From assembly GCA_000002435.2 (NCBI GenBank), contig CM018790.1: DNA of 64,000 bases; one strand, given 5' to 3'. Positions 9,911-50,959 of this stretch are shown here, one piece after another (position 1 is the stretch's first letter; the number at the start of each line of letters is the position of its first letter). This stretch comes from Giardia intestinalis (Eukaryota). Made by a program: the position numbers and the translations under genes. The notes beneath the pieces were generated by a model that saw only the letters and a program-made list of their open reading frames with translations, was not told the origin of the DNA and did no database searches.

Positions 9911-11239
9911 ATGGGCAAGGAGAAGAAGCACATCAACCTCGTCGTCATCGGGCACGTCGACAACGGGAAGTCGACGCTGACGGGCCACCTCATCTACAAG
10001 TGCGGCGGGATCGACCAGCGCACGATCGACGAGTACGAGAAGCGCGCGACGGAGATGGGCAAGGGCTCCTTCAAGTACGCGTGGGTCCTCGACCAGCTCA
10101 AGGACGAGCGCGAGCGCGGGATCACGATCAACATCGCGCTCTGGAAGTTTGAGACGAAGAAGTACATCGTCACGATCATCGACGCCCCGGGCCACCGCGA
10201 CTTCATCAAGAACATGATCACGGGGACGTCCCAGGCCGACGTCGCGATCCTCGTCGTCGCGGCGGGCCAGGGCGAGTTCGAGGCCGGGATCTCGAAGGAC
10301 GGCCAGACGCGCGAGCACGCGACCCTTGCGAACACGCTCGGGATCAAGACGATGATCATCTGCGTCAACAAGATGGACGACGGCCAGGTCAAGTACTCGA
10401 AGGAGCGCTACGACGAGATCAAGGGCGAGATGATGAAGCAGCTCAAGAACATCGGCTGGAAGAAGGCCGAGGAGTTCGACTACATCCCGACGTCCGGCTG
10501 GACCGGGGACAACATCATGGAGAAGTCCGACAAGATGCCCTGGTACGAGGGCCCGTGCCTGATCGACGCGATCGACGGGCTCAAGGCCCCGAAGCGCCCG
10601 ACCGACAAGCCCCTCCGCCTCCCGATCCAGGACGTCTACAAGATCTCGGGCGTCGGGACCGTCCCCGCGGGCCGCGTCGAGACGGGCGAGCTCGCGCCCG
10701 GGATGAAGGTCGTCTTCGCCCCGACGTCCCAGGTCTCGGAGGTCAAGTCCGTCGAGATGCACCACGAGGAGCTCAAGAAGGCCGGGCCCGGGGACAACGT
10801 CGGCTTCAACGTCCGCGGGCTCGCCGTCAAGGACCTCAAGAAGGGCTACGTCGTCGGGGACGTGACGAACGACCCGCCCGTCGGCTGCAAGAGCTTCACC
10901 GCCCAGGTCATCGTCATGAACCACCCGAAGAAGATCCAGCCCGGCTACACGCCCGTCATCGACTGCCACACCGCGCACATCGCGTGCCAGTTCCAGCTCT
11001 TCCTCCAGAAGCTCGACAAGCGCACGCTCAAGCCCGAGATGGAGAACCCGCCCGACGCAGGCCGCGGCGACTGCATCATCGTCAAGATGGTCCCCCAGAA
11101 GCCCCTGTGCTGCGAGACGTTCAACGACTACGCGCCCCTCGGCCGCTTCGCCGTCCGCGACATGAAGCGCACCGTCGCCGTCGGGATCATCCAGGAGATC
11201 GACAAGGAGGAGTTCAAGCCCCCCAAGGGCGGCAAGTGA
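9911..11239 (+). CDS. EF1A: Translation elongation factor 1-alpha
   Basis: Full-length 442-aa EF-1alpha with [17 protein letters not shown] and NKMD GTP-binding motifs. Codons end almost exclusively in G/C, the known signature of highly expressed Giardia genes. Confidence 0.97.
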
Positions 11240-11669: not shown

Positions 11670-14600
11670 ATGCTTGCGGTCCTTGGTCTGCTGATCGCCT
11701 TTCAAGCAGCGAAGTGTACACACTCCAACCAGGTCAGCGATTGCGCAGAGGACCGTTGCGAGGAGATCAACGGCCACGAGCTGTGCACAGAGTGTAGGAA
11801 TGCTGGCTACATACCCTTCAACGGACACTGCATTAAGTATGATAGCGAGCAACACTCTTCATGCAAGAGTGCAGATGGTACACCCATTGTAAGCGAAAAG
11901 AGGTGCGGGATGTGTACAGACTCCATGTATCTATACAAAGGAGGCTGCTACGCGTGCGGTAATCTTTACCCCGGGAACCTTATATGTAGCGAGTGCGATA
12001 AAGGAGTTTGCAAGTCTTGTACGTCTGGTTTCTTTAGGAACCCTGCAGCGTCGCAAACAGTCGATTCGTGTGTTCGGTGTGATGACACAACAGGAGTGGC
12101 GGACTTTGTAGGAGTTGCCGGTTGCCTGCATTGCCTCTCGCCGTCTAAGTCTAAGGGTCCTGACGTGGCCCTATGTGTCAAGTGTAAGCTCTCGACACAC
12201 AAGCCTAATCCGAACGGAGACATTTGCTACAGATGCGAGATCCCAGACTGCCCTAGGTGTGCGGCTGATGATTCGTGTGCAGTTTGTGGTCGCGGGTATC
12301 TTAAGGGAACAACCAAGCGTGTTTGCGTCTCTCAGTGTGGAGTTGGCTTCTACGTAGCCCCTACTCAGCTGCGACAATGCAAAAAATGCTCTGGTGCGTG
12401 TCAAACCTGCGAAGGACCTAATGAAACAGATTGCACCTCTTGCAATGAATCGGAGGGCTATTTTCTGGCAGCAGAGAATGGAACGGGGAGGTGTGTTTCC
12501 TGTGGAGACGAGCAGGGACACGCTGGATGGAAAGGAGTAGCAAATTGCAAGACCTGCATTCCTCCCAGTACGCCTGGAGTGGTTAAATGCACAACATGCG
12601 AGTTGGGCCATTCGCCTATTAATGGAAAATGCGAAGTAGAGTGTGGCGAGCCATCTGGGTATTGCGAAGAAAATAGCTGTAACGTTGCCTGGAGCGACGA
12701 TCTCCTCTGCTCTCGGTGCATCGAAGGATATGCGCCTATCGAAGGTATGTGTAATGTAGTTACACCCGATCATGGAAGTGGCTGCGTTGCCAATAAGGGA
12801 CGTTGTGAAAAATGTGGTTTGTGGTACTTCCTTTACCAAGGAGGATGTTATAACGTATGGTTGGGATACAATCACTTTGTTTGTTTAGAAGCCGGGGCCA
12901 AACCTGAGGAAATTGGGTTGTGTAAGAGGTGTGCAAGTGGATTTCGGAATGAGAAAGGTATTTGCGTGCGCTGCCGGGACCCGTACTGTAAGACGTGTAT
13001 TCAGGACACAAACACGTGCGAGTCCTGCATCGACGGATACTACGATCCGAGCTTTTGCAAACGATGCCACGATGACTGTGAGACATGCGTAGGAGAAGGT
13101 CCAAGGCGATGCCTCACATGTCCCTCGAAGAAGTACTTATTGCCTATATATAAAAACATCGGAGTTTGTGTGGATGGGTCGCAATGTGGCTACGGGATGT
13201 ATGGAGATATCTCTTCTCAGAAGTGCCTTCCCTGTAGTGCAGGATGTGCTACATGCAGAAGCTCGAGAGATGATGAATGCATATCCTGCTACCTCCGGAC
13301 ACACTTCTTTGTTCCTACTGGGCAGAACCGTGGCAAATGCATCGAATGTGGAGACACAACCAATCCTAAAGGGATTAATGGTTGTAGAGAGTGCGCTATG
13401 GAAAACGATTTGGTTAAGTGTCTTTCTTGTAGGGTCGGCTATATATTGGTCAATGGCAAGTGCCAGTCCCACTGTGAGGACCCCAATTGCGCGGCGGGCT
13501 CGTGCATGGTGGGAATAGGCGAGGAGCTGTACTGTAGCTTGTGCAAGACGGATGGACACGCGCCTGTGGACGGCATTTGCACTGATGTAACAAGCGCACA
13601 CCCCAGCGGTTGCGTGACTGGCGTAGGTTTTGACTCAGCGCGGAGCTGTATTCGGTGTGGTGCGGGGTACTTCCTGTACATGGGCGGTTGCTACCAGGAG
13701 AACAAGGAGCCCGGAAAAAGCATCTGTACCTGGGCAGGTGTTCCTGGTTACGTTAATGGAAACAACTACGGTCTTGGTCTTTGTAATGCATGTGCCGCCG
13801 GCTATGAGAACCAAGACGGAGTCTGCCGCCCCTGTACCACGGTGAATTGCGAGCGGTGCCGGATGGATGACCAGGGGGAGGTGTGCACACACTGCATGGT
13901 CGGGTACGTTCTGGATCAGGCAGGCACATGCACCACCAAGACCATGGGTTCATGCACGGTCCCAGATTGCGCCGAGTGTACTGAGGGCAAGAAGTGTCGG
14001 CGTTGTGGACCCGGGTTCTTCCTCACCAGTGTGGGGACCTGCGTGGACAACTGCAGAAGCATTCCCGGGCACTACGCACTTGATGCCACGGAGAAGAGCC
14101 CCGCAAGGTGCGCTCTGTGTGAGATCCCGAACTGCAAAGAGTGTGGAGCCGGTAAGCTTTGTGCTGTGTGCTCGGACGGGTACTTCTCCGACAACGGAGT
14201 CTGCACTCCTTGCGACAGCACGTGCGCCACCTGCGTAGCTAAGGGCCCCAGTAGCTGCGTGTCTTGCCCGTCGGGCTACGCGGTAACGTCTGAATCGGGG
14301 GTCGGGGAGTGCAAGAAACCGTGTACCCCGTCAGCCGACGGCTGCAAGAGGTGCGACGCGAGCATCGACGGAGCAAGCTACTGCTCTGTATGCAGCGCGC
14401 AGACCGCGTTCCCTCTGAACGGCAAATGCGTCGGGCTCTCCGCACGGGCAGGGTCCGCGTGCGTCTCTGTGGTCGACGGCGCCTGCACGAGTTGTGCAGA
14501 CGGATACTTCCTCCTGTCGGGAGGATGCTACCAGGTGGACACATATCCTGGACGCACCGTCTGCCATGCAGAGGAGAGGGGCGTGTGCACCAAGGGCGCG

Positions 14601-15104
14601 CACGGAAAGATGGTCAGCGAGTCGGGCATCCTTCAAGAGTGCTCGATCGCAAACTGCGCCGAATGTACGGCCGACGCCTGCGTGACATGCAGGCTGGGGT
14701 ATGTGAGCGTGGACGGCCAGTGCCAGAAATGCGCCCAGGGCTGCGTCACCTGCATTGCCCCGGACAATCCGCAGATGTGCACCCTCTGTGACACAGGGTA
14801 CTACCAGTCGACAACTGGATCGGCGTTCACATGCACAGCGTGCGGTGCGGACAACAACGGCATGAAGGGGGTCAACGGATGCACTTGCTGCATGCCTCCT
14901 GAGGGCAAGGTCGGATCCGTCCTCTGCTACTCCTTTGATGCGCTCCCGAGCATCATCCCGACGCCCAAGCCCAGCCCAGATCCAGTCCCGAGCTCGACAA
15001 GGAAGACGGCCTTCATAGCCGGGGTATCTGTGACAGCAGTCCTCCTTGTCACGGGCCTGGTCAGTTTTCTCCTGTGGTGGTTCCTATGTAGACGCAGCAG
15101 GTAA
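11670..15104 (+). CDS. High-cysteine membrane protein (HCMP; VSP-like cysteine-rich surface protein)
   Basis: 1144 aa with pervasive CXXC spacing and four GGCY motifs (YKGGCYACG, YQGGCYNV, YMGGCYQE, LSGGCYQV). N-terminal signal peptide MLAVLGLLIAFQA. Single C-terminal TM helix FIAGVSVTAVLLVTGLVSFLLWWF. The cytoplasmic tail is CRRSR, not the VSP-invariant CRGKA. A/T-rich leader tatatttaaATG. Confidence 0.85.
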   Translation: MLAVLGLLIAFQAAKCTHSNQVSDCAEDRCEEINGHELCTECRNAGYIPFNGHCIKYDSEQHSSCKSADGTPIVSEKRCGMCTDSMYLYKGGCYACGNLYPGNLICSECDKGVCKSCTSGFFRNPAASQTVDSCVRCDDTTGVADFVGVAGCLHCLSPSKSKGPDVALCVKCKLSTHKPNPNGDICYRCEIPDCPRCAADDSCAVCGRGYLKGTTKRVCVSQCGVGFYVAPTQLRQCKKCSGACQTCEGPNETDCTSCNESEGYFLAAENGTGRCVSCGDEQGHAGWKGVANCKTCIPPSTPGVVKCTTCELGHSPINGKCEVECGEPSGYCEENSCNVAWSDDLLCSRCIEGYAPIEGMCNVVTPDHGSGCVANKGRCEKCGLWYFLYQGGCYNVWLGYNHFVCLEAGAKPEEIGLCKRCASGFRNEKGICVRCRDPYCKTCIQDTNTCESCIDGYYDPSFCKRCHDDCETCVGEGPRRCLTCPSKKYLLPIYKNIGVCVDGSQCGYGMYGDISSQKCLPCSAGCATCRSSRDDECISCYLRTHFFVPTGQNRGKCIECGDTTNPKGINGCRECAMENDLVKCLSCRVGYILVNGKCQSHCEDPNCAAGSCMVGIGEELYCSLCKTDGHAPVDGICTDVTSAHPSGCVTGVGFDSARSCIRCGAGYFLYMGGCYQENKEPGKSICTWAGVPGYVNGNNYGLGLCNACAAGYENQDGVCRPCTTVNCERCRMDDQGEVCTHCMVGYVLDQAGTCTTKTMGSCTVPDCAECTEGKKCRRCGPGFFLTSVGTCVDNCRSIPGHYALDATEKSPARCALCEIPNCKECGAGKLCAVCSDGYFSDNGVCTPCDSTCATCVAKGPSSCVSCPSGYAVTSESGVGECKKPCTPSADGCKRCDASIDGASYCSVCSAQTAFPLNGKCVGLSARAGSACVSVVDGACTSCADGYFLLSGGCYQVDTYPGRTVCHAEERGVCTKGAHGKMVSESGILQECSIANCAECTADACVTCRLGYVSVDGQCQKCAQGCVTCIAPDNPQMCTLCDTGYYQSTTGSAFTCTACGADNNGMKGVNGCTCCMPPEGKVGSVLCYSFDALPSIIPTPKPSPDPVPSSTRKTAFIAGVSVTAVLLVTGLVSFLLWWFLCRRSR

Positions 15105-15731: not shown

Positions 15732-18700
15732 ATGTCTCCTCCGGTTCTTACGCGCGAGCGTCGACTGAAGAGATTCGGCATCGAGTGCGTCTCTGAGATC
15801 CTCTTCTCTGGGTGGAAGCCTGATGGACGGGTCCACACCCAGAAGCTGACACTCAAGAATACAGGTAAAAGCCTTCAGACGCTTACATATATGCTTCCAC
15901 AAGTCCCTAATTTCTTTGCTCCTTTCCCCGACCCTATACCTCTACCCGTTGGCATGGAGTACTCTATACCCATCTCCTTCAAGCCCACCAGTACCACAGA
16001 GCTTGAGACATACTTAGGCATTCATAGTTCCTTGGCAAATGAAAAGTTTTATATTAAGTTAAGGGCTGAGCTACCAAAGCTTTCTTGTCAGATAGAGCGA
16101 GACCTCGACTTTACGAGGGATCCCACTGCAGTTGCAGAAAAATCTTCTATTACCACACCGTTGCTTAATGACGGTGAAATTCCTTTTCTTTTCACGTTTG
16201 AGTCTCTCCTCCCATTCACTGTTTCGCCCATAACTGGGATAATTTTACCTAATGAGCAGTGTCCGGTGACCTTTTACTTTAACCCTAAAGAAGCCGGCAG
16301 TTTCTCCGGAGAAATTGTACTTTCAATTAAGAAGACGTCTCCCGACCAGCTGGCCAAAGATGAGAAGATCGTCTATGTGGTACATCTGAATGGACTAGCG
16401 CAATACTCATTCATGCGGATAAGCTTTCCCGATCAAGCAGGAACCGTATGCTGCTTTAGGCACACTCCTCTTTTTTCTACTGCATCTAAGTTGGTCTACT
16501 TAGAGAACGACTCCAACGTTCCTTTCTCATTCTCCGTCCACCCTTCTTGGGAGGAACGGGCAGGGTCTGAGGATCACGGAAGAGAGCTATCAGAATATTC
16601 AATAGAGCCCCGTACAGGATTAATTGAAGCTCACGGGAAGACCACTCTCAAGGTAAAGTACACACCTCTATACTGCAATGCATTCTACAATAGCTCGGAC
16701 GTTTACAATGTAGAGTATGTTACCATCGAGGCATTGTCTGGGGTAAAAACGCAGTTTTCAATCGAGGCCTCGTCCTGCCCTGTCCCTTTGGAGCTCTCAG
16801 AAAACAAAATTAATTTAGGAGTTGTATCATTTGGTCATGTCGTCTCCCATACTGTTCAGCTCAAAAATGCAGGCAAGCATCCATGTCCCTTTGAATTCTC
16901 AGCTCCGTTCTTGCGCTCATACAGCACCCCCACGTCATTTGTGGACCCTATAAGTGGGAAGTCTAAATCGGCTAAGGTCATCCTATCTGATAGTAGCGAG
17001 TTTCTAAGTGCAAACCTTCTCATTCCAGATACCGCAGATATAGGACTAACTAACCAGGTAAGGCCGACCAAACGACTCTTGCGTGACCTTCCATGCTACA
17101 TTTCTCCATCTTCCGGGATAGTTCCGGCGGGGATAGCGATTACTCTACAACTACAATTAGACCTGCGGGGGTATACTTCGGAAGTCTCTACATTGGGCTC
17201 CAGAGATGGTGACGGTAAAGGCTTCTTTGCCCCATATCCCTTGGCCGGCTACATCGCGTTGAAAATCCCAGGCGGATCTCCACTCTTTCTTCTTATTTCA
17301 GCTTCTATTCTGCCTGAGAAAGGAATTGATGTTCGTCCCCCGCCTATTACGTTGAGCTATATGGAAAGCTGGCTTGAAATGCGCAGTCGTTACAACATAG
17401 ATGAAGTCTTCTCTCCTCTTACCCCGAGACTTGGAGAGGACCAGCCGCGATACGAACTGTCTCCGTTATTTAATGACTCGGACCTTCCTGAGTTTGCTAT
17501 CAATGAGGCCATGAAGCAATTGAAGGGCATCTGCCAGCCTATCTGTCAGAAGATTAGTGATTATCAACGAACCTCACCTCTTGCTGGTTTTACAAGCGTG
17601 TCAGGAGTAGCAAGCACCTTTCCCTATGCAATGGATCCTTCTATGTCTTTGAACTATGAGCTGTTTGGCTCCCCCGTTACATACTTAAAAGGTGGTGCTG
17701 GAATCAAAGTCTCCCAGCAATACATTGATTTTGGATATGTAGAATATGGTGCTACAGAGATTGCATCCTCATCAGATGCGCGTGAAACCTTCTTTTATAT
17801 CTACAACGACAGCAAGGATGTTAGCCTGATCGTCTCGTGGACCTGCTCCACTATAAGGGGCGGCTTCAAGCTGAGATTTAATGGAATCAGTTCGCAGCCA
17901 GACTACCATCCGTCTATGGCTTACACGATTCCAGAGTTAGACGAGCAGGATGCTGTTGCGGAGTTTATCGCCAGTAAGGGCCCTATTTCTCCAACAATAC
18001 TTACCGAGGATGACGGAGTCTACCTTCCTATCGTGCTAAGTCGAGGCCTCATCTGCAGAATACCTCCTCAGTCATATGGACACTACTCCATTCTCTTCAT
18101 CCCTGATCAATCTGACTCGTTCTATCACACACACTTTACAGCTATTTGTGCTCACGTGCCATTACTACAATACCGAAGCATGCGCCACTGCATCGTAGGC
18201 TCTCCGATTCACACATCAATAAGCGTCACTGGCTGCACGCGTCAACCTCTGAAACCCACGTTAAGTTCTGGAATGCCCGAAATATCTCAGCCTGTTGTAA
18301 CAATGAACAGTCGTTATTACCTGGTAGCGCCTCCGTCCGCTCCCGGCCGTGTTACTCGGACATCTTTTGCACTGACCAATAACACTGAGAGCCATATGAT
18401 ATTCTCGTGCGTCCCTTCTATTTCTTCTGGTCGAGACGCACAGTTTGAACATGCTCATGATCCTACTGCTTCTTTCTTGTTTATTTCACCAAAGATTTTT
18501 GTCATTCCCCCCAATGGTGGAACAAAGATAGTCACTTTTGCCGTCTTTTTCCCCCAGGACGCTATAGAAAATAAGACTAAATACGGTTATGCCAACGTTG
18601 ATAGATCCGCCCTTGGGCTGTCCTCCACTGTGCTCTTCTCTACAGACATTCAGTTCAAGATGAATGGGAGTGAGGAGACGAACATAACCATTAATTTTAG

Positions 18701-21700
18701 CGCTATCTGCTCTGCCCCAAAGCTTATCTTAACCACAGCAAGTGGGCTAAATGAACGGCTTCTTCTTAATTTCGGCATGGGAAGGGATAAGCCGACAAGA
18801 CAAGGAGCCACAACTGCTTTGGGTGATCAGTTCATCAATCACGAGATATTGCAACAGTTAACTCTTCCTCCGCCTCTGTTAGATACTACCGAGCGTAGAT
18901 TTGAAGATACAGAGGGGTTACCAGACGTACCCAACTCCGATACAGTAGACATTGCATTCAGTCCTGTATCAATAGGCTCAGAAGTGCTTCATAATTGTAT
19001 GTTGAAGAATGCATCGGCTGTCCCCGTTGAGGTCCATTTCGACACCAGCTTGTATGTTAGCGAAGCGAAGCAGTGTTATATGCTCATCTCTTCGCCTCAA
19101 GTTACAACGTTACAGCCATACAGCATTTTGCAGCTACAGTTTAAGGTGTTTGCAGATCAGACTTTACTCAGCATAGGAAGATACCAATGGCCCTTTAATG
19201 TTCACGCCTTTATACCCCTAAAGCTCCTCCCTGGCTTCGATTTTGTTACCGCCATCAATCGTGCAGACTTTTATTACGACAGACTGCATAGCTTGTGCTC
19301 TAACACGAATTTAGAAAGAGGCGAGGAAATTGACGGGGACACGCTTATTGCTGTGTCCACAGAGTTGTGGCGTGATGTTTTGAACCATTATACCCAGACA
19401 CCTCTATCAGATATTGTCAGAAGCACTGCCTCCTTTGGGCTCCGTAGCCACAATTACTTTAGAGCAGGGTACGTGGGTGACGCTTATTTGTCAGCCACCA
19501 TACCGCAGCAGTGTATTGGTGTTCCTGAGGTGGCTAGAGCGATGGTAGCAGACACCCTTGTTACAGGAAAGCTTGGTGCCATTATCAGTGTCACACCGCG
19601 ATCTGTAACACTGACACCATCGATACTAAATCTTGGGCCATTTATTCCCGAAACAAGCCACGATATGCACTTTGTGCTTAAAAACAGCAGCAATTGCTCT
19701 ATCTCTTTTGTTATTGAGATACATGAAATAATGCCCAACTTCCCCTTTCTACCCGACCTAGATTCATCAGAGGTATCTCTTAAACGGTATTTATTTGAGC
19801 AAGCGAATGATGGAACAGAATGCTATGTTCCTTCTCTACTCAATAGATTGACGAAGGGTGAATCTGTACTTACAGATAACCAAGTCAAGCGTTGCCCAAC
19901 CTTCTTTGTTCGGACAGGCTCCTGTGGAATTGTTCACTCGAATGCTCAAGCCACGATCACTATTGTGGCAGTTCCTCGACGAGCAGGGTTTATCAAGGGG
20001 CGACTCGTGGTAAAGGTAGTTGAGCTTGTAGGGGCAGTGCTGAGCGAAAATGCTATTTTGGACGAGCTTCGATCAGAATGCATTTACGTTCAGGGCTTAG
20101 CAAAGCAGCTTCTCAGTATACCACTCAAGGAAACGGATACCTTATTCACAAGCAACATTGAAATACGAGCCAATTACCCCAAGTTTTTCATCGCTGATGC
20201 CAGCTGTCCGAAGGTCCCTAGCAGCCAGCTACGTGATATTCTCGACGTTGATTCCCTTAACGAATTTCTATTGGGCGATGTGACGGCTGGAGAACGTGTT
20301 TACAGGAAAAGCCTTCTTATGCGAGAAAAGCTTGCACGAACTATTCTCGATTCGGACCAGCAAGAGAGCGCCGAATCCCGTGTAAGCCAAGTGACACGAA
20401 TGGCTAGGAGCAGGAAAAAATCCGATATAAATGCACAGTCATTGGTCTCCTCTGAAACAACGTCTGTACCGCGTGGAGATAATATTGAAACCACAGTGGA
20501 CATTGAAAATGTGAAGCTTATAAAGTCATTTCCAGTAGTCCTTGGACCAGGTAACAAGCAGACGACAACTTCCAATTACAGAGTCATTCTATCACTGGCT
20601 AATCCCTATGACATCCCTGTTGAGCTATCTCTCACGCTTCCCCACGAGGAACCCAATCTTGAGGCTTGTCCATGGGCTAGAAGTCTTCCCCCAAAGCATG
20701 AGCAGCGAGCCATGGATTTGCTCTCGCGGGGAGTATTTATCATTGCACCAGAGCGTATTTACTTAAAGAAGAATGAGAAGCGTGCATTCATTATAACTTA
20801 CTCTCACGTTGAGGAAGGTGTCCACGAGCTGCAAGTCCAGGTCAGCATAACCAATGGCCGAGTGTTCATTCTGCATCTAATCGGTCAAACGTTAGGTAAA
20901 GACGAGCCAGCCGTTTTAGCACCTATAGAGCAACGCTTCTTGCCAATTGCATTGGGAGAGATCATATCTCCGCGTCAAATTGTAAAACTGACAAATCCGG
21001 GAAAAGTTGGCGTCAATTATGCTTTTCTACGCCCAGAGATGTTTATTTACTCTGCCGAAGGAGAACTAATATTATTAGATCAGGATAGCGATTCTCCACA
21101 ACAGTCGAATCTAGCTCTGCAGGGTTTGCGGTGTTTTTCTGTTGAGAACCATGAAAATTCAGAAGATACATCTGTTGTCGTGCAGAAGGAGCTTACGGTT
21201 CGCCAAAATGTCACGGACATTCTAACATGCTTAAACCCTCGCGGATATTTGGCCCCGAACAGCTCTATTAACATTGTCTTTAGCTTCAGCCCCAAGTGTG
21301 TAGGCTTCCACCACTTCAAGGTGGGGCTAGTAATTTACCCCACTAGCAAGCCCGGGATAAAACTAGAGCGACCACGCAGTCACGGGCTCAAAGAAGTCAC
21401 TGCACCAGGGGCTTCTAACGAGGAAAAAATGGGAGATCATAGTAGTATTAGTCCAATCAATCCCCGTTCCATCAATACAACCTTCACTCATGAATGCGGA
21501 AGTCCTCGTAACGATATTTCCATGCACACAACAGATTTGGAAGCCTATTACGACGCCAATATTTTGGACATCCCAGCGGGCGGCCTTGTGGGATACGGAG
21601 AGTTCGATGATGATGGACTAATAGAAGGCGCTAAGCCTGTTCCGACTAACAAGTTAGCGGAAGTACGCAGGAGTAACACAAATAGTAGAGCAGGAAGTAG

Positions 21701-23120
21701 GTGTAATACCGCTTCATCTGTTGGCAACAGCGGTGTGCGGAGCACAAGGAACTCGTTGCCGAGCAGCGCGATAGTTAAGTCGGCAAGTAGTGTCAACGGG
21801 CCTGCTGCCTCCACTGTGCAAGAGCACGTCGATTCTAGAATATATCAAGTTATTGATCTTGTGGGGTATGTCTTTCTTCCCCACACCCACGTTCCCCAGG
21901 AAATTATTCCGAGCTATGCCCTTGGAGCGGACGCGGATTCTCCCGGCTGTGGGTCTGTTACCATCAAGTCGCAAGACATAGATCCCTCGCTCTTGGCTAA
22001 CACTCAAACTGGTGTAGGACTTTGTTCGCTAAGCTATGGAAGACTAATTCTAGGTGCGCTGCCATGCTTAGGCTATACTAGCACCATTGTAACAATCACG
22101 GGATCCCCCATTGGCAGTACAAGTGTACATCCTTATCTCTCACAATTTAATACTGGACATTATGAATGGTCCTTGATTATGCCTCTGCCAAACCCGAATA
22201 TCCGCATATCCGTTCATCCACAGAATGGGGTACTTGCGCCTGGCGAGACCCAATCTGTACTCATTAACGTATATACAGGAAGCATTCCTATGGTAACCAT
22301 CGAGGACATAGGCTTCAGCGTTATCTTTGTGACAGATAAGTCTGCTCTTATACGTGCAAACACATTTAACTTAGAAAGCCTGAGCTCAAACAATCGCCTT
22401 TCTGTCACTCTGGCCAACACGCAAGCCAGCGCTGCCCGTATTGTGGAGCAAGCGCACCACAAGGGCTTCAACCCACAAGAGATAACCAAGGCTGGTATAG
22501 ATATAGAATCTCGTAAGCATCGTGCCATCTTTCATGGAATATGCTTAAAGGGAGAGGATGACGGAGCAGTCTCCACGCCTCTTAGTCGATACAGTACCCA
22601 CCCCCACGATGATGTCCTCTGGCTAACCCTCATGTGCCACACCCACAGGGCCGCTGATTTGGAGTGTTACACGCATGCGGCATGGGGGCTCAAGCTTGGC
22701 AAAATAGCATGCGAAATGAATGACTTTGGGACCGTTAACTTCAGCAGCAAAGAAGCTAATGAAAAGTATACTGATTTGACCCAAACAGAGACAGAAGAAC
22801 TGGATAAGATCTTAAAGGTTACTCTCCGTGGCGTTGTGAATAGACTCTGCACAGAAGAAACTCCAAAGCAACGATTATCAGATGCAGCAACACGGACTAA
22901 GCGGCGCGTGCTCAATGGAATGAGAAGGGCCAACTTCATAAGTGAGGGATTGGACAATCCTGTCACAATTCTAGATTCAGAAGATGTGGAGCCAGGCGTG
23001 AACTGTGCACCCTTTTTGCAGGCTTTATCGCGTGCAATCTTTTCCTGCTCAACTGAAGACACCTCTCCAGGCAGACACAGATCAACATCAAGTATGCCAG
23101 ATAGTAAGGACGAAACGTAA
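15732..23120 (+). CDS. Giant (2462 aa) protein with multiple ASH/MSP-like Ig-fold domains, probably axoneme-associated (CFAP65/CFAP47/hydin-like)
   Basis: There are at least six recurring units of the type '...L(K/T)N.G.......F......F...P..G.L.PG....(I/V).F.P...'. Examples: LTLKNTGKSLQTL...FFAPFPDPIPLPVGMEYSIPISFKPT; VQLKNAGKHPCPFEF; HFVLKNSSNCSISFVIEI; VKLTNPGKVGVNYAFL. ATG at 15732. Confidence 0.4.
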   Translation: MSPPVLTRERRLKRFGIECVSEILFSGWKPDGRVHTQKLTLKNTGKSLQTLTYMLPQVPNFFAPFPDPIPLPVGMEYSIPISFKPTSTTELETYLGIHSSLANEKFYIKLRAELPKLSCQIERDLDFTRDPTAVAEKSSITTPLLNDGEIPFLFTFESLLPFTVSPITGIILPNEQCPVTFYFNPKEAGSFSGEIVLSIKKTSPDQLAKDEKIVYVVHLNGLAQYSFMRISFPDQAGTVCCFRHTPLFSTASKLVYLENDSNVPFSFSVHPSWEERAGSEDHGRELSEYSIEPRTGLIEAHGKTTLKVKYTPLYCNAFYNSSDVYNVEYVTIEALSGVKTQFSIEASSCPVPLELSENKINLGVVSFGHVVSHTVQLKNAGKHPCPFEFSAPFLRSYSTPTSFVDPISGKSKSAKVILSDSSEFLSANLLIPDTADIGLTNQVRPTKRLLRDLPCYISPSSGIVPAGIAITLQLQLDLRGYTSEVSTLGSRDGDGKGFFAPYPLAGYIALKIPGGSPLFLLISASILPEKGIDVRPPPITLSYMESWLEMRSRYNIDEVFSPLTPRLGEDQPRYELSPLFNDSDLPEFAINEAMKQLKGICQPICQKISDYQRTSPLAGFTSVSGVASTFPYAMDPSMSLNYELFGSPVTYLKGGAGIKVSQQYIDFGYVEYGATEIASSSDARETFFYIYNDSKDVSLIVSWTCSTIRGGFKLRFNGISSQPDYHPSMAYTIPELDEQDAVAEFIASKGPISPTILTEDDGVYLPIVLSRGLICRIPPQSYGHYSILFIPDQSDSFYHTHFTAICAHVPLLQYRSMRHCIVGSPIHTSISVTGCTRQPLKPTLSSGMPEISQPVVTMNSRYYLVAPPSAPGRVTRTSFALTNNTESHMIFSCVPSISSGRDAQFEHAHDPTASFLFISPKIFVIPPNGGTKIVTFAVFFPQDAIENKTKYGYANVDRSALGLSSTVLFSTDIQFKMNGSEETNITINFSAICSAPKLILTTASGLNERLLLNFGMGRDKPTRQGATTALGDQFINHEILQQLTLPPPLLDTTERRFEDTEGLPDVPNSDTVDIAFSPVSIGSEVLHNCMLKNASAVPVEVHFDTSLYVSEAKQCYMLISSPQVTTLQPYSILQLQFKVFADQTLLSIGRYQWPFNVHAFIPLKLLPGFDFVTAINRADFYYDRLHSLCSNTNLERGEEIDGDTLIAVSTELWRDVLNHYTQTPLSDIVRSTASFGLRSHNYFRAGYVGDAYLSATIPQQCIGVPEVARAMVADTLVTGKLGAIISVTPRSVTLTPSILNLGPFIPETSHDMHFVLKNSSNCSISFVIEIHEIMPNFPFLPDLDSSEVSLKRYLFEQANDGTECYVPSLLNRLTKGESVLTDNQVKRCPTFFVRTGSCGIVHSNAQATITIVAVPRRAGFIKGRLVVKVVELVGAVLSENAILDELRSECIYVQGLAKQLLSIPLKETDTLFTSNIEIRANYPKFFIADASCPKVPSSQLRDILDVDSLNEFLLGDVTAGERVYRKSLLMREKLARTILDSDQQESAESRVSQVTRMARSRKKSDINAQSLVSSETTSVPRGDNIETTVDIENVKLIKSFPVVLGPGNKQTTTSNYRVILSLANPYDIPVELSLTLPHEEPNLEACPWARSLPPKHEQRAMDLLSRGVFIIAPERIYLKKNEKRAFIITYSHVEEGVHELQVQVSITNGRVFILHLIGQTLGKDEPAVLAPIEQRFLPIALGEIISPRQIVKLTNPGKVGVNYAFLRPEMFIYSAEGELILLDQDSDSPQQSNLALQGLRCFSVENHENSEDTSVVVQKELTVRQNVTDILTCLNPRGYLAPNSSINIVFSFSPKCVGFHHFKVGLVIYPTSKPGIKLERPRSHGLKEVTAPGASNEEKMGDHSSISPINPRSINTTFTHECGSPRNDISMHTTDLEAYYDANILDIPAGGLVGYGEFDDDGLIEGAKPVPTNKLAEVRRSNTNSRAGSRCNTASSVGNSGVRSTRNSLPSSAIVKSASSVNGPAASTVQEHVDSRIYQVIDLVGYVFLPHTHVPQEIIPSYALGADADSPGCGSVTIKSQDIDPSLLANTQTGVGLCSLSYGRLILGALPCLGYTSTIVTITGSPIGSTSVHPYLSQFNTGHYEWSLIMPLPNPNIRISVHPQNGVLAPGETQSVLINVYTGSIPMVTIEDIGFSVIFVTDKSALIRANTFNLESLSSNNRLSVTLANTQASAARIVEQAHHKGFNPQEITKAGIDIESRKHRAIFHGICLKGEDDGAVSTPLSRYSTHPHDDVLWLTLMCHTHRAADLECYTHAAWGLKLGKIACEMNDFGTVNFSSKEANEKYTDLTQTETEELDKILKVTLRGVVNRLCTEETPKQRLSDAATRTKRRVLNGMRRANFISEGLDNPVTILDSEDVEPGVNCAPFLQALSRAIFSCSTEDTSPGRHRSTSSMPDSKDET

Positions 23121-23291: not shown

Positions 23292-26003
23292 ATGGCACGC
23301 CTGCTTTGTGGGTCCAGGCGCTTCAGGGCTCACTTTGTAGCGTCCCTGCGACTTGCACTGAGCCTGCGTCTAAAGTTCATTGTTGGGATGGTCATAAACA
23401 TAACTCTTGGCCTCGTTTTCCCACTATTGATGACTATCAGTATATCTAGCACAGCGCCAAAAGAGAAGCTCTCCTTCGATGACATACACCTTGATTCTCC
23501 GTGCCTAAAAGTGGGGACCTGCTATACATTTGCGTGGGGCCCGACAGGAAATAAAGATGTAGAAGCATTTATGTCTGCTGTTTTTGAAGAAGCAAGGACT
23601 GCTATCAGCAGAAACGACGTAAAGGATATCGGCTTCCAGACGTTCGAGGAGCTTTATGGATTTATAACCGGAGAAGGGCTGGGCCATGTTGGTGTCGGTC
23701 TTTTTATAGAGAACTCAACGCGGAAAATACGCTTATATTGCAATAATAAGGTCCCTAACGTGCCACTAATGGCCGATATCTCTCTCGACAGCTCTACCTT
23801 ACTGCAGGTGGTGAGGATTTTGAACACGGTGCATTCGGGCATTTCCGGGTACGACATACAATTCTATAATACCATGAGTCTATTCTTTCAGAGCATAGGT
23901 GCTACGAGCATTTCTATAGTATCAATGACCTTCATAGTATCAGGAATGTACACCCTTTCAAACATAGGGATGATGAAGGGCAATCGCCGCTACGAATACC
24001 TTGTATGCCATGGGCTGCATAGACTTGCATATCAGATAGCAAACGCAGTCGTCACGCTGGGTGAAATTGCCATCGTGCTTGTAGGCACCATCCTTATTTG
24101 CTATTACTTTGGAATAGGGTCAACCAGCAACCGTTGGCTTACTGTGGTAGTGCTCCTCTTATCCATTTTCCCAGTGGCAGCGCAGAATGTGTCATGGTCG
24201 CTGTTTTGCGCCTCAACAATCAGCAGACCCAACACAATGCAGCTTCTCTTTTTCCTTCCATCCATGTTGGTCGCCATAGTCCAAATGATAATTACGTTCA
24301 CCGTGAAACAGGAGTTGCAATCTACGAATAACAGTGGAATACAGTTTCTAATGGCCATCCTGTCTCTTCTATTCCCGCCGTTTGCCAACAGCTCCTACTT
24401 CACAGCTGCAAGCATGGTGTTTGCACATGACTCTTTATACTACTCTACCTTTGGACGAGTAACGTCCATTACTGACGGTCTCACCAAGTCTACTAAGTAT
24501 TACCCCAATCTTTTGCTCCTAGTATTGAGTAGTATTATTTCTGGTCTTGCATATTTTGCACTCGCTGTGTACCAGGAGTACACTAGCCCCGGAAGCGCAG
24601 CTCCCAGGAAGCCACGCAGCTTTCCGATTCATTGGCTCCAGACAAGAAAGACTAGCACTAAGAAAAAGACAGAGGATGATAAGCAGAGTGAGGAACCATC
24701 ATCAATTAACCTGTCGACCTCTCAGCTAATTGAGTCACAGATCCCGTTGCTCAACGGACCCGATCGTGAAAACGTATCAGAGTATGCAATTTCATTAAGA
24801 GACGTCTCAGTCATATTTCCCCTCAAAGGCAGGGCAACAAAAACTGAAAATCCACCTATAGGAGATGTTATATCTGCAAAGTACGTAAGCAACGGATCTC
24901 TATATACGACTGCCCGCGGATACAACGTGAGCGCAAAGGATACAAAGGCACTTTATCATCTGACACTTAACCTGCCATATAATAGCGTTATTGGGTTACT
25001 GGGTGCAAACGGAAGCGGGAAGAGCACGTTACTGAAGGTTCTCTTGGGAATGTATAAGCCAGTGAGTAGTCGGTACCTACCCAACAAGTACGCTGAGGTG
25101 GCCAACGGTAGCGTGTGCCTTCTAGGAACGTACTGTCCTGTCACTGCCGAAGAGGAATTATACAGTGGAAGGCATTTGGCTCTTGTATTGCAAGAAAACG
25201 TGATGTTCCCAAAGGCCACAGTAGGGGAGCAAATTAACATATTTGCAGCCATTGTATTGTACGACTTTCCGCTCGGGGAACGCAGCCAGCTGATCCTGAC
25301 CAGTCTTGAGTGCATGGGGTTGGCTGATAAGCTGAACCAAAAGGTAGAGACTCTATCTGGGGGTCAGAAGAGGCGCCTAAATATTGCCATGACCATACTC
25401 CTCTGTGAGGCGGGCCTTGCTGAACTTCTAATCATGGACGAGCCTGCATGCGGTGTGGACATCGAGTCCCGCACCTTCTTATGGAAGTATCTCAAGAGTT
25501 TACGGATTCGAGCGCAGCAGACAGATAAGCGCTTCTGCGTCCTCCTAACAACGCATCTCTTTGAAGAAGTGGAAGAGCTCTGCGAAACAGTCGTCATGCT
25601 CAGAGATGGAAGGCTTTTAGCTGCAGGAAGTCAGCTCTTTTTCAAAACTGAGTTTGCGGGAGGCTATCAATTGCTACTAGATTGTCCTAACTCAAGAAAA
25701 ATCCTTTTCGATGTGCACAGAAAATTCTTTTATGCACACCCTATCTCTAATGATGATTGTGAGGATGAGCTCTTAAATGTAGTCACAGTAGATCCGTACA
25801 ACCACAATCTCAGCGCTCTGTTTATTAGCTACGCTGACCAAGCAAAGCTTCCAGATGCGCTACAATATCTCGCTGAAAGGGGCATTCCCCAGGAACAATG
25901 TGCTCTGCATACAGCTTTGCTATCGGAAATTTTCATTCAGCAGCAAGAAAAAGAGATGCCGGAAGTGCCTGCTGTAGAGCATGGGTGGTATTGTGAAAAA
26001 TAA
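23292..26003 (+). CDS. ABC transporter, ABCA-like half-transporter (TMD-NBD)
   Basis: An N-terminal ABC-2-type multi-helix membrane domain is followed by an NBD with Walker A (GANGSGKST), ABC signature (LSGGQKRRL) and Walker B (LLIMDEP). 903 aa, ATG at 23292. Confidence 0.8.
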   Translation: MARLLCGSRRFRAHFVASLRLALSLRLKFIVGMVINITLGLVFPLLMTISISSTAPKEKLSFDDIHLDSPCLKVGTCYTFAWGPTGNKDVEAFMSAVFEEARTAISRNDVKDIGFQTFEELYGFITGEGLGHVGVGLFIENSTRKIRLYCNNKVPNVPLMADISLDSSTLLQVVRILNTVHSGISGYDIQFYNTMSLFFQSIGATSISIVSMTFIVSGMYTLSNIGMMKGNRRYEYLVCHGLHRLAYQIANAVVTLGEIAIVLVGTILICYYFGIGSTSNRWLTVVVLLLSIFPVAAQNVSWSLFCASTISRPNTMQLLFFLPSMLVAIVQMIITFTVKQELQSTNNSGIQFLMAILSLLFPPFANSSYFTAASMVFAHDSLYYSTFGRVTSITDGLTKSTKYYPNLLLLVLSSIISGLAYFALAVYQEYTSPGSAAPRKPRSFPIHWLQTRKTSTKKKTEDDKQSEEPSSINLSTSQLIESQIPLLNGPDRENVSEYAISLRDVSVIFPLKGRATKTENPPIGDVISAKYVSNGSLYTTARGYNVSAKDTKALYHLTLNLPYNSVIGLLGANGSGKSTLLKVLLGMYKPVSSRYLPNKYAEVANGSVCLLGTYCPVTAEEELYSGRHLALVLQENVMFPKATVGEQINIFAAIVLYDFPLGERSQLILTSLECMGLADKLNQKVETLSGGQKRRLNIAMTILLCEAGLAELLIMDEPACGVDIESRTFLWKYLKSLRIRAQQTDKRFCVLLTTHLFEEVEELCETVVMLRDGRLLAAGSQLFFKTEFAGGYQLLLDCPNSRKILFDVHRKFFYAHPISNDDCEDELLNVVTVDPYNHNLSALFISYADQAKLPDALQYLAERGIPQEQCALHTALLSEIFIQQQEKEMPEVPAVEHGWYCEK

Positions 26004-35394: not shown

Positions 35395-38300
35395 CTAATG
35401 GTTTCGCACAATGAATGCGGAAAGGGCAGCCACGCCTCCACCAAGCACGATACTGGCAGCTTCGCTTTTGGCGTCCATGCAGCAGTCTGTTAGTAAATTT
35501 ATTCCCTGGCGCATGTTGTCTATGGCCCGCTGGGAGTCGTACGCTGAGATGTCACAGGATGCCAGGTTGAGATGGTTGAATACTTTACGTATGGCCTTAA
35601 CAAGCTCCTGCTTTTGTGCTTTCGGTTCCTCTATGTCTGCAGAAGAAAGCTTTTTTGTTGCGATATCTTGTGATAAAGCAACCAATCGTTCATATACTTT
35701 AGATGCCAATTGAATGTTGCGCTTCGCGGGAGTCCCCCGCATGACCTCATCGAGAGTCAAACTACTTATTATAGCATAGCGCCCAAGGCAGTAGCTAAGA
35801 TAAAAATCTATAAAGTTCGCATAGTACATGCGTCGACAAGAAAGATCGTGCACAGCGTCTGCAAGGGCGCAACTCTCAACTGCAGGTTGATCCCCTATCT
35901 CCAACTGAGCAATGACAGAGGTGTCGTCCTTATACTCTACGGAGAAAGCGTAGAACACCTCTGTTACGGAATTGAAGTTGAGCAAAGTAACACATGTATC
36001 ACAGAACTCTCTAAACTTCCCTTCAGTAAGAAAGTTCTCTGTACTAATCTTAGACCAAACAAGGGTCATACTTTCAAAGAGCGAGCGCCTATAGCCACCA
36101 TACGCCACTAATATCATTTGCGAAAGATGTACTATGTCAATGGTATAGGCTTGCTTACTGCGCTGAACCAGCTTGCAACTATAAATGCTCTCGCACAGAC
36201 TGTACCTGCGCTTACTGCTCCAGTTGGGCAGTATGGCTTGTAAAAGCTCAGGTACCTCGACTAAATCCACAGCATCTCTATGAAGCCCACCAAGGGCCCG
36301 CTGGATGTCAAGATATGTGAGGTAAAAGTCAAAGTCTAAGTCACCGAATAGAAAACGCGCAAATAGGTAAATTTCGTTGTTCTCGTATTGATGATAGCAA
36401 ACAGAGACGATCAAGGACCATAAAAGCGATGTGACTATGGCGGTTACGCCATACTTGTTCTTGGCATAATATAGTAAAAAGTGTGGCAAAGACTCTGCCT
36501 CTTGCCGTGAGAGACCACCGTGAACAACGTTGAAGCTAAAAGATCTGCTCCGGGAGTCAGTGCCTTTTGTACTGTCTGCTTTTGTGATGTCTGCTCCACC
36601 TACTCCGTCAGGCACAGGGTCAAGCTCAACCTCGTGATCTCCCCGGCCTTCATCTTTCAGAGAAACTGTCAACACGTGTTCTACGGGTTCCTTGATGGTA
36701 ACGTAGGACTCTTCCATGTTGATCCTGGAACTATATATAGCCCTGATTAGCTTGAGAGTCCATATACTAGACTTTAGATAGGCGTTGGCAATTGGTATTC
36801 TAATATATGTTTTGTGCATTATGTCCACAGCACTTCCCGTCTCTATTGTAAAAAGTTCACAACGGTGAGGAGAGAGCTCTTGAAGTAGTTGTAGAATGGT
36901 CGGAAAGATTGACCTAGATTCATTCTTTCGGACATGTAATGCCGAATGTCTCAGGTACAGCACTGTGTCACCAGGTCTTGGTATCAGCAACTTCGTCTTA
37001 GAGAACTGCTTGGCAGTAATGCGAAAACCGTCCGTCAGGGAATCATTGGGTTTAGTTATATCTTCTTCTGTTATCGTCCTAGAAGGAAGATGCTTTATGG
37101 TCTCCACTAGATATTCAAACGTCTTCTGCATCTTCTGGCGAGTAGCCTGTCTATTCTGAGGCGACTGTTCCTCGCCTTTTGAAGAATTAGAGGAGAAGTC
37201 GTCTACAAGATCAACATTAGAAGAGAGAATACAGGGATAAATAACTTGGCTGTCATCAGAATGAGAATGTGCTAGTTCTAATAGTTCATGCGGGAGCGTA
37301 CAACGATGTCGCTTGAAGGATCCGAACTTTGTAACGAGGGCTTCAAACGTCCCACCAACAAACTGAAGTAATGGCCCTTCTGGTGGTTCAAGGGGATTAC
37401 ATTGGGTGAAGAGGACATTCTGGCCGTGCCTGGGATGGAGCCGCAAGTATGGGTGGCCAGAATGGGATGCAGTCACCGTATAAGATGGACGAGAATCACG
37501 GCCACGTGCATGGAGATACTCGCTATATGTTAGCGCAAGTCCTTGAGGATAAGTGTTGTCCTGTTTTGTTTTGATAAACGTGGTTGAGGAGAGCTGCGGT
37601 TGGAATTGGCCTTGGATATGATGATTGAGAATTTTGTTCTCAAGGCGACGGTTTTGAAGTGCTGTGCGTTCAGTGGTGGATGTAAGAGCTGGTGATTCCT
37701 TGCCAGGACCTAAATTAAACTTACTTTGCTGCTGCGCAAACAGTAGCAAACGTCCACCTCGTGCTTCCTCAGGGGTTAAGCTTTCTATTAAAAGTGACCC
37801 CTCTGCTATGTTATTCTTTTGTCTGATGGTTTCAGAGGCAAATTTATTAGCATCAATGCTTTGTCGCAAGCGTTGGGATGGAAGGGATTTGTGCCGTTGG
37901 GATACAGAAAGGAGCTCGAGAACGGTCTCCTTGTAAGTTCTAGAATTGTTGTCGACAAGATCGTCGTTGGCCATACTTAGAGCCATGTCCTCCCGAGTAC
38001 ATCGTAGAGATGTGTCAAGTGGCTGTGCGATAGAACCAGAAAGGTTACACCCGTCCAGTGGGCTCAACTGTTGAATGGCAGATGGTGACTCCATGTCCGT
38101 GGCAATATCTGCGGTGTCCTTAACATCTGAGTCTGGATTGAACTGCGATTTAGCCATGCTCTTGAGGTATGATGTTATAGGACTACTAGTATTAATTGCC
38201 GTTTTTGGCCGTTCACTAGCAGCTTTTAGATCTAATAAACTTTGTTCTTTGTTATGGAGGTTCCTCTGTTGAACAAGGGGAAGATGGTCTGGTGAGTTGT

Positions 38301-49033: not shown

Positions 49034-49474
49034 ATGGTCCTGTTTAACATATGCGGCTGCAAGGGGAGTCAGAGGTCACAGTCTCAAACACAATACTCAC
49101 ACATCGTATTGGACGACAGTCTGTCGGACTACCCGTTCGACACCAGCAACAAGCTTGTCGGGGCGAGCAGGGCTCTCGACGCCGACGCCGCCTCGACGGT
49201 TGTCGTCAACGAAAGGCTGACGTCCATCGAGGCCAGAACCCTGTTGGGGCGGGTGCACACCATGGAGCTTCTGCTTGACCAGTCGGCCCACACGATTGGG
49301 GAGCTGCGCCGCGAAAACGCCAGGCTGCAGCGGGTCATCCTGTCCACAGACGCATCAACGCAGAAGATCAGGCAGAGGGAGGTCCCCAAGCAATGCGCAG
49401 CGGAGAGCATATCAGGGAAATTCACTCCAGAACTGCCACAAAGCCCTATTCGTATGCTCCCTCTTTCCTACTGA
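49034..49474 (+). CDS. Small hypothetical coiled-coil protein encoded with strongly GC3-biased codons
   Basis: ATG at 49034. The central ~70 codons are almost all G/C-ending (GAC ACC AGC AAC AAG CTT GTC GGG GCG AGC ...). Predicted helical/coiled-coil (ELLLDQSAHTIGELRRENARLQRVIL). Its 3' end overlaps the convergent ankyrin gene by ~7 nt. Confidence 0.45.
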   Translation: MVLFNICGCKGSQRSQSQTQYSHIVLDDSLSDYPFDTSNKLVGASRALDADAASTVVVNERLTSIEARTLLGRVHTMELLLDQSAHTIGELRRENARLQRVILSTDASTQKIRQREVPKQCAAESISGKFTPELPQSPIRMLPLSY

Positions 49475-50766: not shown

Positions 50767-50959
50767 TTTTATTTTCTCTCCTGGCCAAGTGCATGAGACC
50801 GCAATTATTTCGTAATTTACACTACTCCGGGCTGCGACCGGCCGGAGCTCGCCAAGTAGACCAGCCATCTGAGGCAGAGGCGGACACTTATGTAGGAACC
50901 AAGGGCCTTCCCCTCCTGCTCTATAGACGGATGGCCACGAGACGCGGCACATCACCTAC

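Follow-up and report, generated by a model that had tools for sequence, protein, structure and literature searches.

GL50803_009134 of Giardia intestinalis, a probable full-length CFAP65/FAP65 orthologue and candidate anchor of the central-apparatus projection C2a

In the Chlamydomonas central apparatus, FAP147 is the core around which the C2a arm is formed, together with FAP65 and FAP70 (PMC9113940). Mouse CFAP65 is anchored at the base of C2a, reaches towards C2e and binds CFAP70, MYCBPAP, SPAG16 and CFAP20, and its loss leads to a disintegration of C2a, to sperm defects of the type termed multiple morphological abnormalities of the flagella (MMAF) and to hydrocephalus (PMC11759756). In Trypanosoma brucei, FAP65 is among the few proteins confidently assigned on C2, and its immunoglobulin (Ig) folds are said to span protofilament interfaces (PMC12154619). 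The central apparatus of Giardia is functional, as knockdown of PF16 impairs beating (PMC3150270). Here we describe a gene in a 64,000-nucleotide stretch of Giardia intestinalis DNA (contig CM018790.1, assembly GCA_000002435.2; referred to as the window), whose product GL50803_9134 is, judged by sequence comparison, almost certainly the full-length Giardia orthologue of CFAP65/FAP65. A literature search for Giardia together with CFAP65 or FAP65 in the searchable library led to no paper linking the two. Our data concern the family assignment, the collinearity with CFAP65, the Ig fold of modules 1 to 4 and the lineage-specific insertions and tail of this protein.

The complete, intron-less gene occupies 15732..23120 on the + strand as one uninterrupted open reading frame (ORF) that begins with ATG and comprises 2462 codons, so that the coordinates, strand and start given for it in a first-pass annotation of the window were exactly reproduced. 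Its translation of 2462 residues matches GL50803_009134 (GL50803_9134, XP_001707056.1, UniProt A8BH74) of G. intestinalis WB at every residue, and immediately 5' of the ATG lies an A/T-rich, initiator-like stretch (tattaaaaaatccagaaatagc) of the type usual for Giardia initiators. The G. muris orthologue shows 53% identity at 99% coverage, and two further homologues align from residue 3 (P0043) and up to residue 2439 (P0044), respectively; as these alignments run end to end, both start and stop are supported. At present the protein is named 'hypothetical protein' at NCBI and 'CFAP65-like ninth Ig-like domain-containing protein' at UniProt, the latter after one domain only. The sequence and this automatic one-domain name are what was already known from the databases, and the annotation as a full-length CFAP65 orthologue is what is gained here.

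Among the Pfam models, those derived from CFAP65 itself passed their cut-offs clearly, with 98.4 bits against 24 for the 'ninth' domain (PF24816), 54.0 against 27 for PF24291, 83.8 against 27 for the 'fourth' (PF24507) and 51.4 against 28 for the 'seventh' (PF25249). The sequence was then compared with all PDB chains, among which the Chlamydomonas and mouse central-apparatus structures put FAP65, hydin, FAP47, FAP74, FAP81 and FAP221 side by side. As a single sequence it matched FAP65 (7n61_1B) with E = 2.2e-26 and mouse CFAP65 (9ijj_h) with E = 1.9e-23, both in a collinear manner (for FAP65, query residues 4-394 to 20-375 and 1620-1762 to 1189-1336). A profile of five Giardia-lineage homologues gave FAP65 (9.1e-46, 158.6 bits) and CFAP65 (7.3e-45, 155.6 bits), followed at a lower level by hydin (2.1e-22, 81 bits), FAP47 (1.9e-10, 41 bits), FAP81 (6e-9, 36.5 bits) and CFAP74 (5.7e-8, 33 bits), and all 11 PDB matches of the profile were central-apparatus proteins. 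Profile-profile alignment by hhalign of the Giardia trio to four CFAP65s resulted in a single collinear alignment of residues 8-2172 to 31-1640 of 1802 (1500 columns, probability 100%, E = 6.7e-42), which spans about 88% of the Giardia protein; as controls, hydin gave at most 318-439 columns with a score of 52.8 and a probability of no more than 58%, and calponin-homology (CH) domain proteins of the CFAP47-like type reached no more than 11%. The order of the Pfam matches along the protein, a seventh-like domain at about residue 1070, an eighth-like domain at about 1292, the ninth at 1471-1718 and PF24291 at 1724-1873, is that of CFAP65. Finally, an AlphaFold2 (AF2) model of residues 1-1200, calculated with the seven-sequence alignment only, was compared with the PDB by Foldseek, where 7som_D ranked first (1.2e-48 over 1153 columns; entry 7SOM contains FAP65, the chain letter was not matched to a protein) and mouse CFAP65 (9ijj_h) second (4.1e-46), and the top 25 were all Ig-rich central-apparatus chains. 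Low TM-scores of about 0.2 are to be expected from a flexible multi-domain chain and a model that is partly of low confidence.

Could the protein instead be the Giardia orthologue of hydin or CFAP47, or a generic multi-ASH protein that has no one-to-one orthologue and matches CFAP65 through a shared domain type? Such a reading would fit with the additional matches of the Giardia profile to hydin, FAP47, FAP81 and CFAP74, with the cross-matching of the Ig-domain Pfam families among each other, and with a database search by the seven-sequence alignment, whose listed matches include hydins, besides proteins with a CH domain and bacterial 'choice-of-anchor D' proteins. We nevertheless consider it very unlikely, as FAP65/CFAP65 led hydin by about 75 bits and FAP47 by about 115 bits, the long alignment of 1500 columns from the N-terminus to residue 2172 was obtained with CFAP65 only, the Pfam scan contained neither Hydin_ADK (PF17213) nor a CH domain, and a length of 2462 residues fits FAP65 (2257 residues) and not hydin (about 4000-5150 residues). 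Hydin was rejected on its bit score, the missing PF17213 match and its length, and CFAP47 on matches to one module each (E = 1.9e-10 for FAP47 and 1.2e-5 for CFAP47), the missing CH-domain match and the hhalign control. Since four comparisons (Pfam, PDB sequence, profile-profile and Foldseek) agree, the choice falls on CFAP65. The first-pass annotation had placed the protein in a 'CFAP65/CFAP47/hydin class' and held that exact orthology could not be resolved by eye: the homology class was right, and the profile comparisons narrow it to CFAP65 and all but settle the orthology, with the forward half of the reciprocal check proposed there leading to FAP65/CFAP65 as best match. In a word-indexed search of 5.8 billion proteins with the Giardia protein as query, no Giardia paralogue was found at E <= 1e-5 and the only close homologues were single Giardia-lineage orthologues and CFAP65s; residues 1471-1873 as query for a homologue search returned only two Giardia fragments.

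Regarding the repeated modules, at least six had been proposed from two literal motifs. The repeat is real and comprises 10-11 divergent modules, but the quoted motifs occur only twice each in their strict forms '[LV]KN.G' (about 0.03 expected from shuffles) and 'P..G.[LIV].P[GN]' (about 0.02 expected). A relaxed form of the first signature occurs five times against 0.37 expected, and a relaxed two-part signature read from the sequence, h-x-h-x-N-x-[GSNDP]...h-x-h-x-h followed by P/x-x-x-G/x...h-x-h-x-F/Y-x-P, describes ten modules and a degenerate eleventh. The signature Asn of these ten modules (N43, 146, 259, 379, 692, 883, 1093, 1318, 1624 and 1755) is invariant at all ten positions in G. 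intestinalis A and B/E-type, G. muris and the four non-Giardia CFAP65 homologues of the alignment (a coral, a starfish and two further sequences; no mammal is included). Pfam models of the ASH/HYDIN/CFAP65/Cep192 Ig group were above cut-off at six positions (residues 24-113, 130-208, 240-325, 353-392, 1598-1718 and 1724-1873) and below it at 1070-1140 and 1292-1332. For a self-comparison, the seven-sequence alignment was sliced into windows of 110 residues and every window was compared to every other by hhalign; this linked residues 125-191, 240-318, 293-385, 455-528, 853-990, 1065-1138, 1288-1328/1385-1430, 1599-1697 and 1836-1872 with probabilities of 80-97%, corresponding to wider module spans of about 125-205, 232-325, 345-392 plus 455-528, 853-990, 1065-1140, 1288-1430, 1599-1718 and 1830-1872.

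With respect to the type of the modules, the Pfam check confirmed that ASH-type Ig modules are present, with 31.2 bits against a cut-off of 27 for ASH (PF15780, residues 240-313) and 34.2 against 27 for the OCRL-like ASH (PF21310, residues 355-392), and the HYDIN/CFA65/VesB Ig model (PF22544) reached 83 bits against 25.5 (E = 2e-23). The likeness to MSP also claimed at first did not hold, as PF00635 stayed below its cut-off (18.3 against 25.9 bits, E = 0.0022) and covered residues 162-187 only; this resemblance is that of distantly related Ig-like families only. Neither are such modules essentially restricted to ciliary or axonemal proteins, as had been stated, since members of these Pfam families are also present in Cep192, OCRL and TMEM131 and in bacteria. 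Bacterial 'choice-of-anchor D domain-containing' proteins (P0029, P0031 and P0033; KSB1, Vitiosangium and Archangium) were observed to contain Ig modules of this HYDIN/VesB type in long arrays and to score as high as 242 bits against the Giardia and CFAP65 profile, so that the module is neither eukaryote- nor cilium-specific.

The modules are described in the following from the N-terminus, all features lying on the + strand. Module 1 (residues 17-113, 15780..16070) carries the signature LTLKNTGKSLQTLTY ... PIPLPVGMEYSIPISFKP, is aligned to the N-terminus of FAP65 and was predicted by AF2 as a beta-sandwich with a predicted local distance difference test score (pLDDT) of 62-81. It matched Pfam Cep192_D3 (3.9e-20) and Cep192_D4 (7.9e-14) above cut-off, which would also be expected if the protein was not axonemal but a Cep192/SPD-2-like ASH protein of the centrosome or basal body. 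However, these matches are confined to this single module (residues 31-113), which aligns equally to the N-terminus of FAP65/CFAP65, no Cep192 chain was found among the 11 PDB sequence matches, and the published localisation is not to basal bodies; an identity as Cep192 was rejected, and we regard this reading as extremely improbable.

Next comes module 2 (residues 124-224, 16101..16403), matched by Ig_CFAP65_4th (1.2e-23), HYDIN_VesB_CFA65-like_Ig (2e-23) and Ig_CFAP65_7th (1.2e-13) and predicted with a pLDDT of about 66-86 except for a low-confidence loop at 205-210. Module 3 (residues 226-349, 16407..16778) holds the ASH match proper (PF15780, 2.5e-7 at 240-313), was also matched by Ig_CFAP65_4th in a segment scan (4.4e-10) and aligned to module 2 in the self-comparison with a probability of 96.9. 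Module 4 (residues 351-527, 16782..17312) is split by a Giardia-specific insertion at about 390-454; its N-terminal part matched the OCRL-like ASH (3.1e-8 at 355-392) and its C-terminal half (455-528) aligned to residues 289-350 (probability 89.8). A linker without Pfam match follows (residues 529-657, 17316..17702), predicted to be helical or disordered, with AF2 helices at 541-553, 588-614 and 636-643 of pLDDT below 50. Module 5 (residues 658-837, 17703..18242; signature FYIYNDSKDVSLIVSW, insertion 709-773) was modelled with strands of pLDDT 50-58 only and has no Pfam match of its own; it lies within the collinear hhalign alignment, and N692 and W703 are invariant with the CFAP65s. Module 6 (residues 853-995, 18288..18716) was recognised by self-comparison (114-170 to 853-931, probability 90.2; 144-220 to 881-990, 86.2) and AF2 strands with a pLDDT of about 50-63, and module 7 (residues 1066-1160, 18927..19211) by self-comparison (232-309 to 1066-1138, 95.5) and a sub-threshold match to Ig_CFAP65_7th (E = 0.03), in a part where the AF2 prediction is of low confidence.

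Module 8 (residues 1278-1432, 19563..20027), with an insertion at about 1349-1377, gave a sub-threshold match to Ig_CFAP65_8th (PF25248, 21.8 against 25 bits) and self-alignments of 350-389 to 1289-1328 (86) and of 1385-1430 to 1830-1869 (82). Module 9 (residues 1471-1718, 20142..20885), the 'ninth Ig-like domain' of CFAP65, contains a Ser/Arg/Glu-rich insertion at about 1537-1593, matched PF24816 with E = 5.9e-28 and aligns to residues 1189-1288 of FAP65 and 1119-1217 of mouse CFAP65. It is followed by module 10 (residues 1724-1873, 20901..21350; insertion at about 1771-1818), with matches to Ig_CFAP65 (PF24291, 1.8e-14) and, on its C-terminal half, to Ig_CFAP65_4th (2.3e-8), which aligns to mouse CFAP65 1218-1309. 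A Ser-rich and probably disordered region (residues 1875-2090, 21354..22001; 13% S, 9% G) shows no Pfam match and no regular secondary structure in a low-confidence AF2 model. A putative module 11 (residues 2097-2200, 22020..22331; signature HPQNGVLAPGETQSVLINVY) is tentatively placed where this model has beta strands and where the collinear hhalign alignment to CFAP65 comes to its end (residue 2172 to residue 1640), and the lineage-specific C-terminal tail (residues 2201-2462, 22332..23117) is predicted to be helical from the same low-confidence model.

In the AF2 models, residues 11-390 formed four beta-sandwiches with a pLDDT of mostly 70-86, the segments 455-528, 658-837 and 853-995 were of moderate confidence, and modules 7-11 stayed below a pLDDT of 50. 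The second model, covering residues 1263-2462, was read for rough secondary structure only, with beta strands at about 1278-1432, 1669-1721 and 2097-2200, nothing regular at 1875-2090 and helices at 2227-2436. The expectation of Ig folds therefore held for modules 1-4, which are all-beta with a pLDDT of about 70-86, and with moderate confidence only for modules 5-6.

About 570 residues of the Giardia protein, in some 20 blocks within and between modules (including 390-454, 709-773, 1005-1072, 1537-1593 and 1771-1818), have no aligned counterpart in the four other CFAP65s, and mostly account for its extra length (2462 against 1739-2211 residues). The identity to G. muris is about 64-68% over residues 2100-2400, a span that begins upstream of the tail, and thereby equals that of most N-terminal Ig modules, and 29% past residue 2400. 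When the tail (residues 2200-2462) was used as query in an exhaustive phmmer search of 1.84 billion representative proteins, it was detected in four long proteins only and always C-terminally, with a single protein from each lineage: a Giardia fragment, the G. muris protein, P0043 and P0044. The latter two, of 2398 and 2515 residues, are Ala/Gly-rich full-length homologues with 32-41% identity and presumably come from relatives of Giardia. Judged from these sequences, the tail is under constraint and, as far as HMMER reaches, specific to this lineage.

From the family assignment and the module architecture, we read GL50803_009134 as a CFAP65 orthologue whose 10-11 ASH-type Ig modules would be arranged on C2 as beads on a string and anchor the C2a projection, and we give this joint reading a probability of roughly 0.7. 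A C2a function in the Giardia central apparatus is, by homology, likely; we infer its placement on C2, its binding partners and its influence on beating from the solved central-apparatus structures and mouse genetics. The chain of Ig modules would lie along the surface of the C2 central-pair microtubule and would position and hold the C2a projection. Through this projection, the central apparatus would pass signals to radial spokes and dyneins, which shape the beat of the eight 9+2 flagella of Giardia. The Giardia-only insertions sit in loops and linkers, and the conserved helical tail probably binds lineage-specific partners.

Several observations weigh against this proposal. The aligned columns show a low identity to CFAP65 of 22%, significant Pfam matches of their own are lacking for modules 5-8 and 11, the AF2 confidence is poor past about residue 530 with an unusable C-terminal half (mean pLDDT 34), and a search of the accessible literature for a structure of the Giardia central apparatus found none. 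In addition, the only experimental datum on GL50803_009134 conflicts with an axonemal location. In a Giardia localisation atlas (Hagen et al., Mol Biol Cell 2026, PMC13322205), complete ORFs, each preceded by some 200 bp of its native 5' region, were expressed episomally as C-terminal fusions to green fluorescent protein (GFP) or mNeonGreen (mNG). Its Supplementary Table 2 gives GL50803_009134 as 'plasma membrane' (GO:0005886) in the homology category 'hypothetical protein', and the new name assigned is 'plasma membrane protein', which is the latest curated annotation of the gene (PMC13322205). The axonemal proteins RSP3, CFAP53 and CFAP73 labelled flagella in the same atlas, RSP3 all of them (PMC13322205). 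As the table names CFAP53 and CFAP73 and shows RSP3 in all flagella, the system is able to localise axonemal proteins, and the homology to CFAP65 was overlooked. The localisation check suggested by the first-pass annotation thus spoke against a flagellar site, and the flagellar role rests on homology only.

No signal peptide was found at the N-terminus of GL50803_009134 and no convincing transmembrane helix in its sequence. The sole hydrophobic 19-mer above the classical threshold, residues 1425-1443 with a Kyte-Doolittle value of 1.73, includes four charged or polar residues (K, E, E and N) and falls into a predicted strand. An integral membrane protein is therefore unlikely, and this candidate was rejected. 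Most likely, the 'plasma membrane' signal reflects an unincorporated or mis-targeted fusion, as a plasmid-expressed scaffold of 2462 residues with GFP on its conserved tail would fail to enter the central apparatus.

Alternatively, the protein may be a CFAP65 descendant that has its function at the cortex or the plasma membrane of the cell, instead of or besides the central apparatus, as a peripheral Ig scaffold under the plasma or flagellar membrane. This would agree with the atlas entry, obtained with an episomal C-terminal GFP fusion under the native promoter (PMC13322205), and the conserved lineage-specific tail together with about 570 residues of insertions could carry a new function. Extra-axonemal pools also have a precedent in mammalian CFAP65, for which interactions with intraflagellar transport (IFT) have been reported (PMC11759756) and for which roles in the acrosome and mitochondrial sheath are indicated by the titles of references cited in PMC13345628. 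We consider a cortical protein unlikely, since neither a signal peptide nor a convincing hydrophobic 19-mer is present, the full-length collinearity with axonemal CFAP65 and the ten signature Asn argue for a retained ancestral role, the tagged construct would be prone to failed incorporation, and the atlas entry is one high-throughput observation without comment or follow-up. That the CFAP65 scaffold has been redeployed at the cortex of the plasma or flagellar membrane in diplomonads, or has a second, membrane-proximal pool there that the tail could mediate, appears to us rather improbable; a membrane pool, if true, would recall the reported links of mammalian CFAP65 to the acrosome membrane and to IFT.

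The presence of CFAP65 in a flagellate is unsurprising, and unexpected are only the conflict between homology and tag and the conserved lineage-specific tail. This conflict is a warning on renaming large axonemal proteins from their localisation. The assignment provides a 2462-residue Giardia 'hypothetical protein' with a name and with a function that can be tested. Should it be the C2a anchor, C2a would have been retained in a very divergent eukaryote, and the protein would offer a handle on how the central apparatus tunes four flagellar pairs that beat differently in a parasite for which motility is important in colonisation.

The neighbouring genes bear out the identity of the organism and show no operon-like relationship to the CFAP65 gene; they encode a variant-specific surface protein (VSP), EF-1alpha, an ABC transporter (23292..26003), a SET-domain protein, ankyrin-repeat ('21.1'-like) proteins, a kinesin and a CCT subunit. 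The VSP gene (11670..15104, +; Pfam VSP 1.7e-104) immediately precedes the CFAP65 gene and is adjoined by EF-1alpha (9911..11239, +), both in a locally G+C-rich region (0.52-0.58). A second giant ORF of 2612 residues (35395..43233, -) had no Pfam match at E <= 0.001 and no PDB sequence match at E <= 0.01, and would encode a large Giardia protein that resists any annotation. Ankyrin-repeat proteins are encoded at 46114..47631 (+) and 49468..50955 (-), the former with an N-terminal protein-kinase match that is weak and stays below its cut-off (21.1 bits), as known from the Giardia NEK and 'protein 21.1' families. The stretch 50001..56000 is G+C-rich (0.55-0.62 compared to about 0.46 around it), with overlapping ORFs on both strands (52927..54156 +, 53299..54108 -, 53321..54181 - and 54196..54921 +); a Pfam scan of the two + strand ORFs gave no match, and an Rfam scan gave none anywhere in the window. 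A kinesin of 1066 residues with an N-terminal motor domain (56734..59934, +; 3.3e-102), possibly microtubule-associated or flagellar, lies 34 kb away with no sign of a link.

Compared to the known central-apparatus proteins, hydin (C2b) and CFAP47/FAP47 (C1) share the ASH-type Ig module with the Giardia protein and give significant local matches. These cover no more than one or two modules at the N-terminus (query residues 21-198, 73-197 and 126-202), a long collinear alignment is not obtained, hydin is twice as long, and the Hydin_ADK and CH domains are absent from the Giardia protein in the Pfam scan. Mouse CFAP65 (CCDC108; 9IJJ_h, 1847 residues), the product of an MMAF and infertility gene in human, is the second-best match in sequence and fold and shares the ninth and tenth Ig modules (query residues 1618-1764 to 1119-1266). 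The Giardia protein is about 600 residues longer than mammalian CFAP65, and the last approximately 160 residues of the aligned non-Giardia homologues do not align to its tail. The acrosome, manchette and IFT roles reported for mammalian CFAP65 have no counterpart in Giardia. Chlamydomonas reinhardtii FAP65 (2257 residues; 7N61 chain 1B, also in 7SOM), a protein of the C2a arm, is the best sequence match among solved structures and of similar length, with a collinear N-terminal block of four modules and a block of the ninth and tenth modules. It differs by an identity of only about 14-25%, by the lack of a detectable counterpart to the Giardia insertions and C-terminal tail, and by its placement on C2 through a structure, whereas the Giardia protein is placed there through its homology. 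For T. brucei FAP65 the likeness is known from its description and not from a sequence comparison (PMC12154619): it is a tightly bound C2 protein of Ig folds from a lineage that is neither opisthokont nor algal. As FAP147 is not conserved in T. brucei (PMC12154619), the set of C2a partners may differ in Giardia as well. That FAP65 has been kept on C2 in T. brucei supports an ancestral eukaryotic role of this protein.

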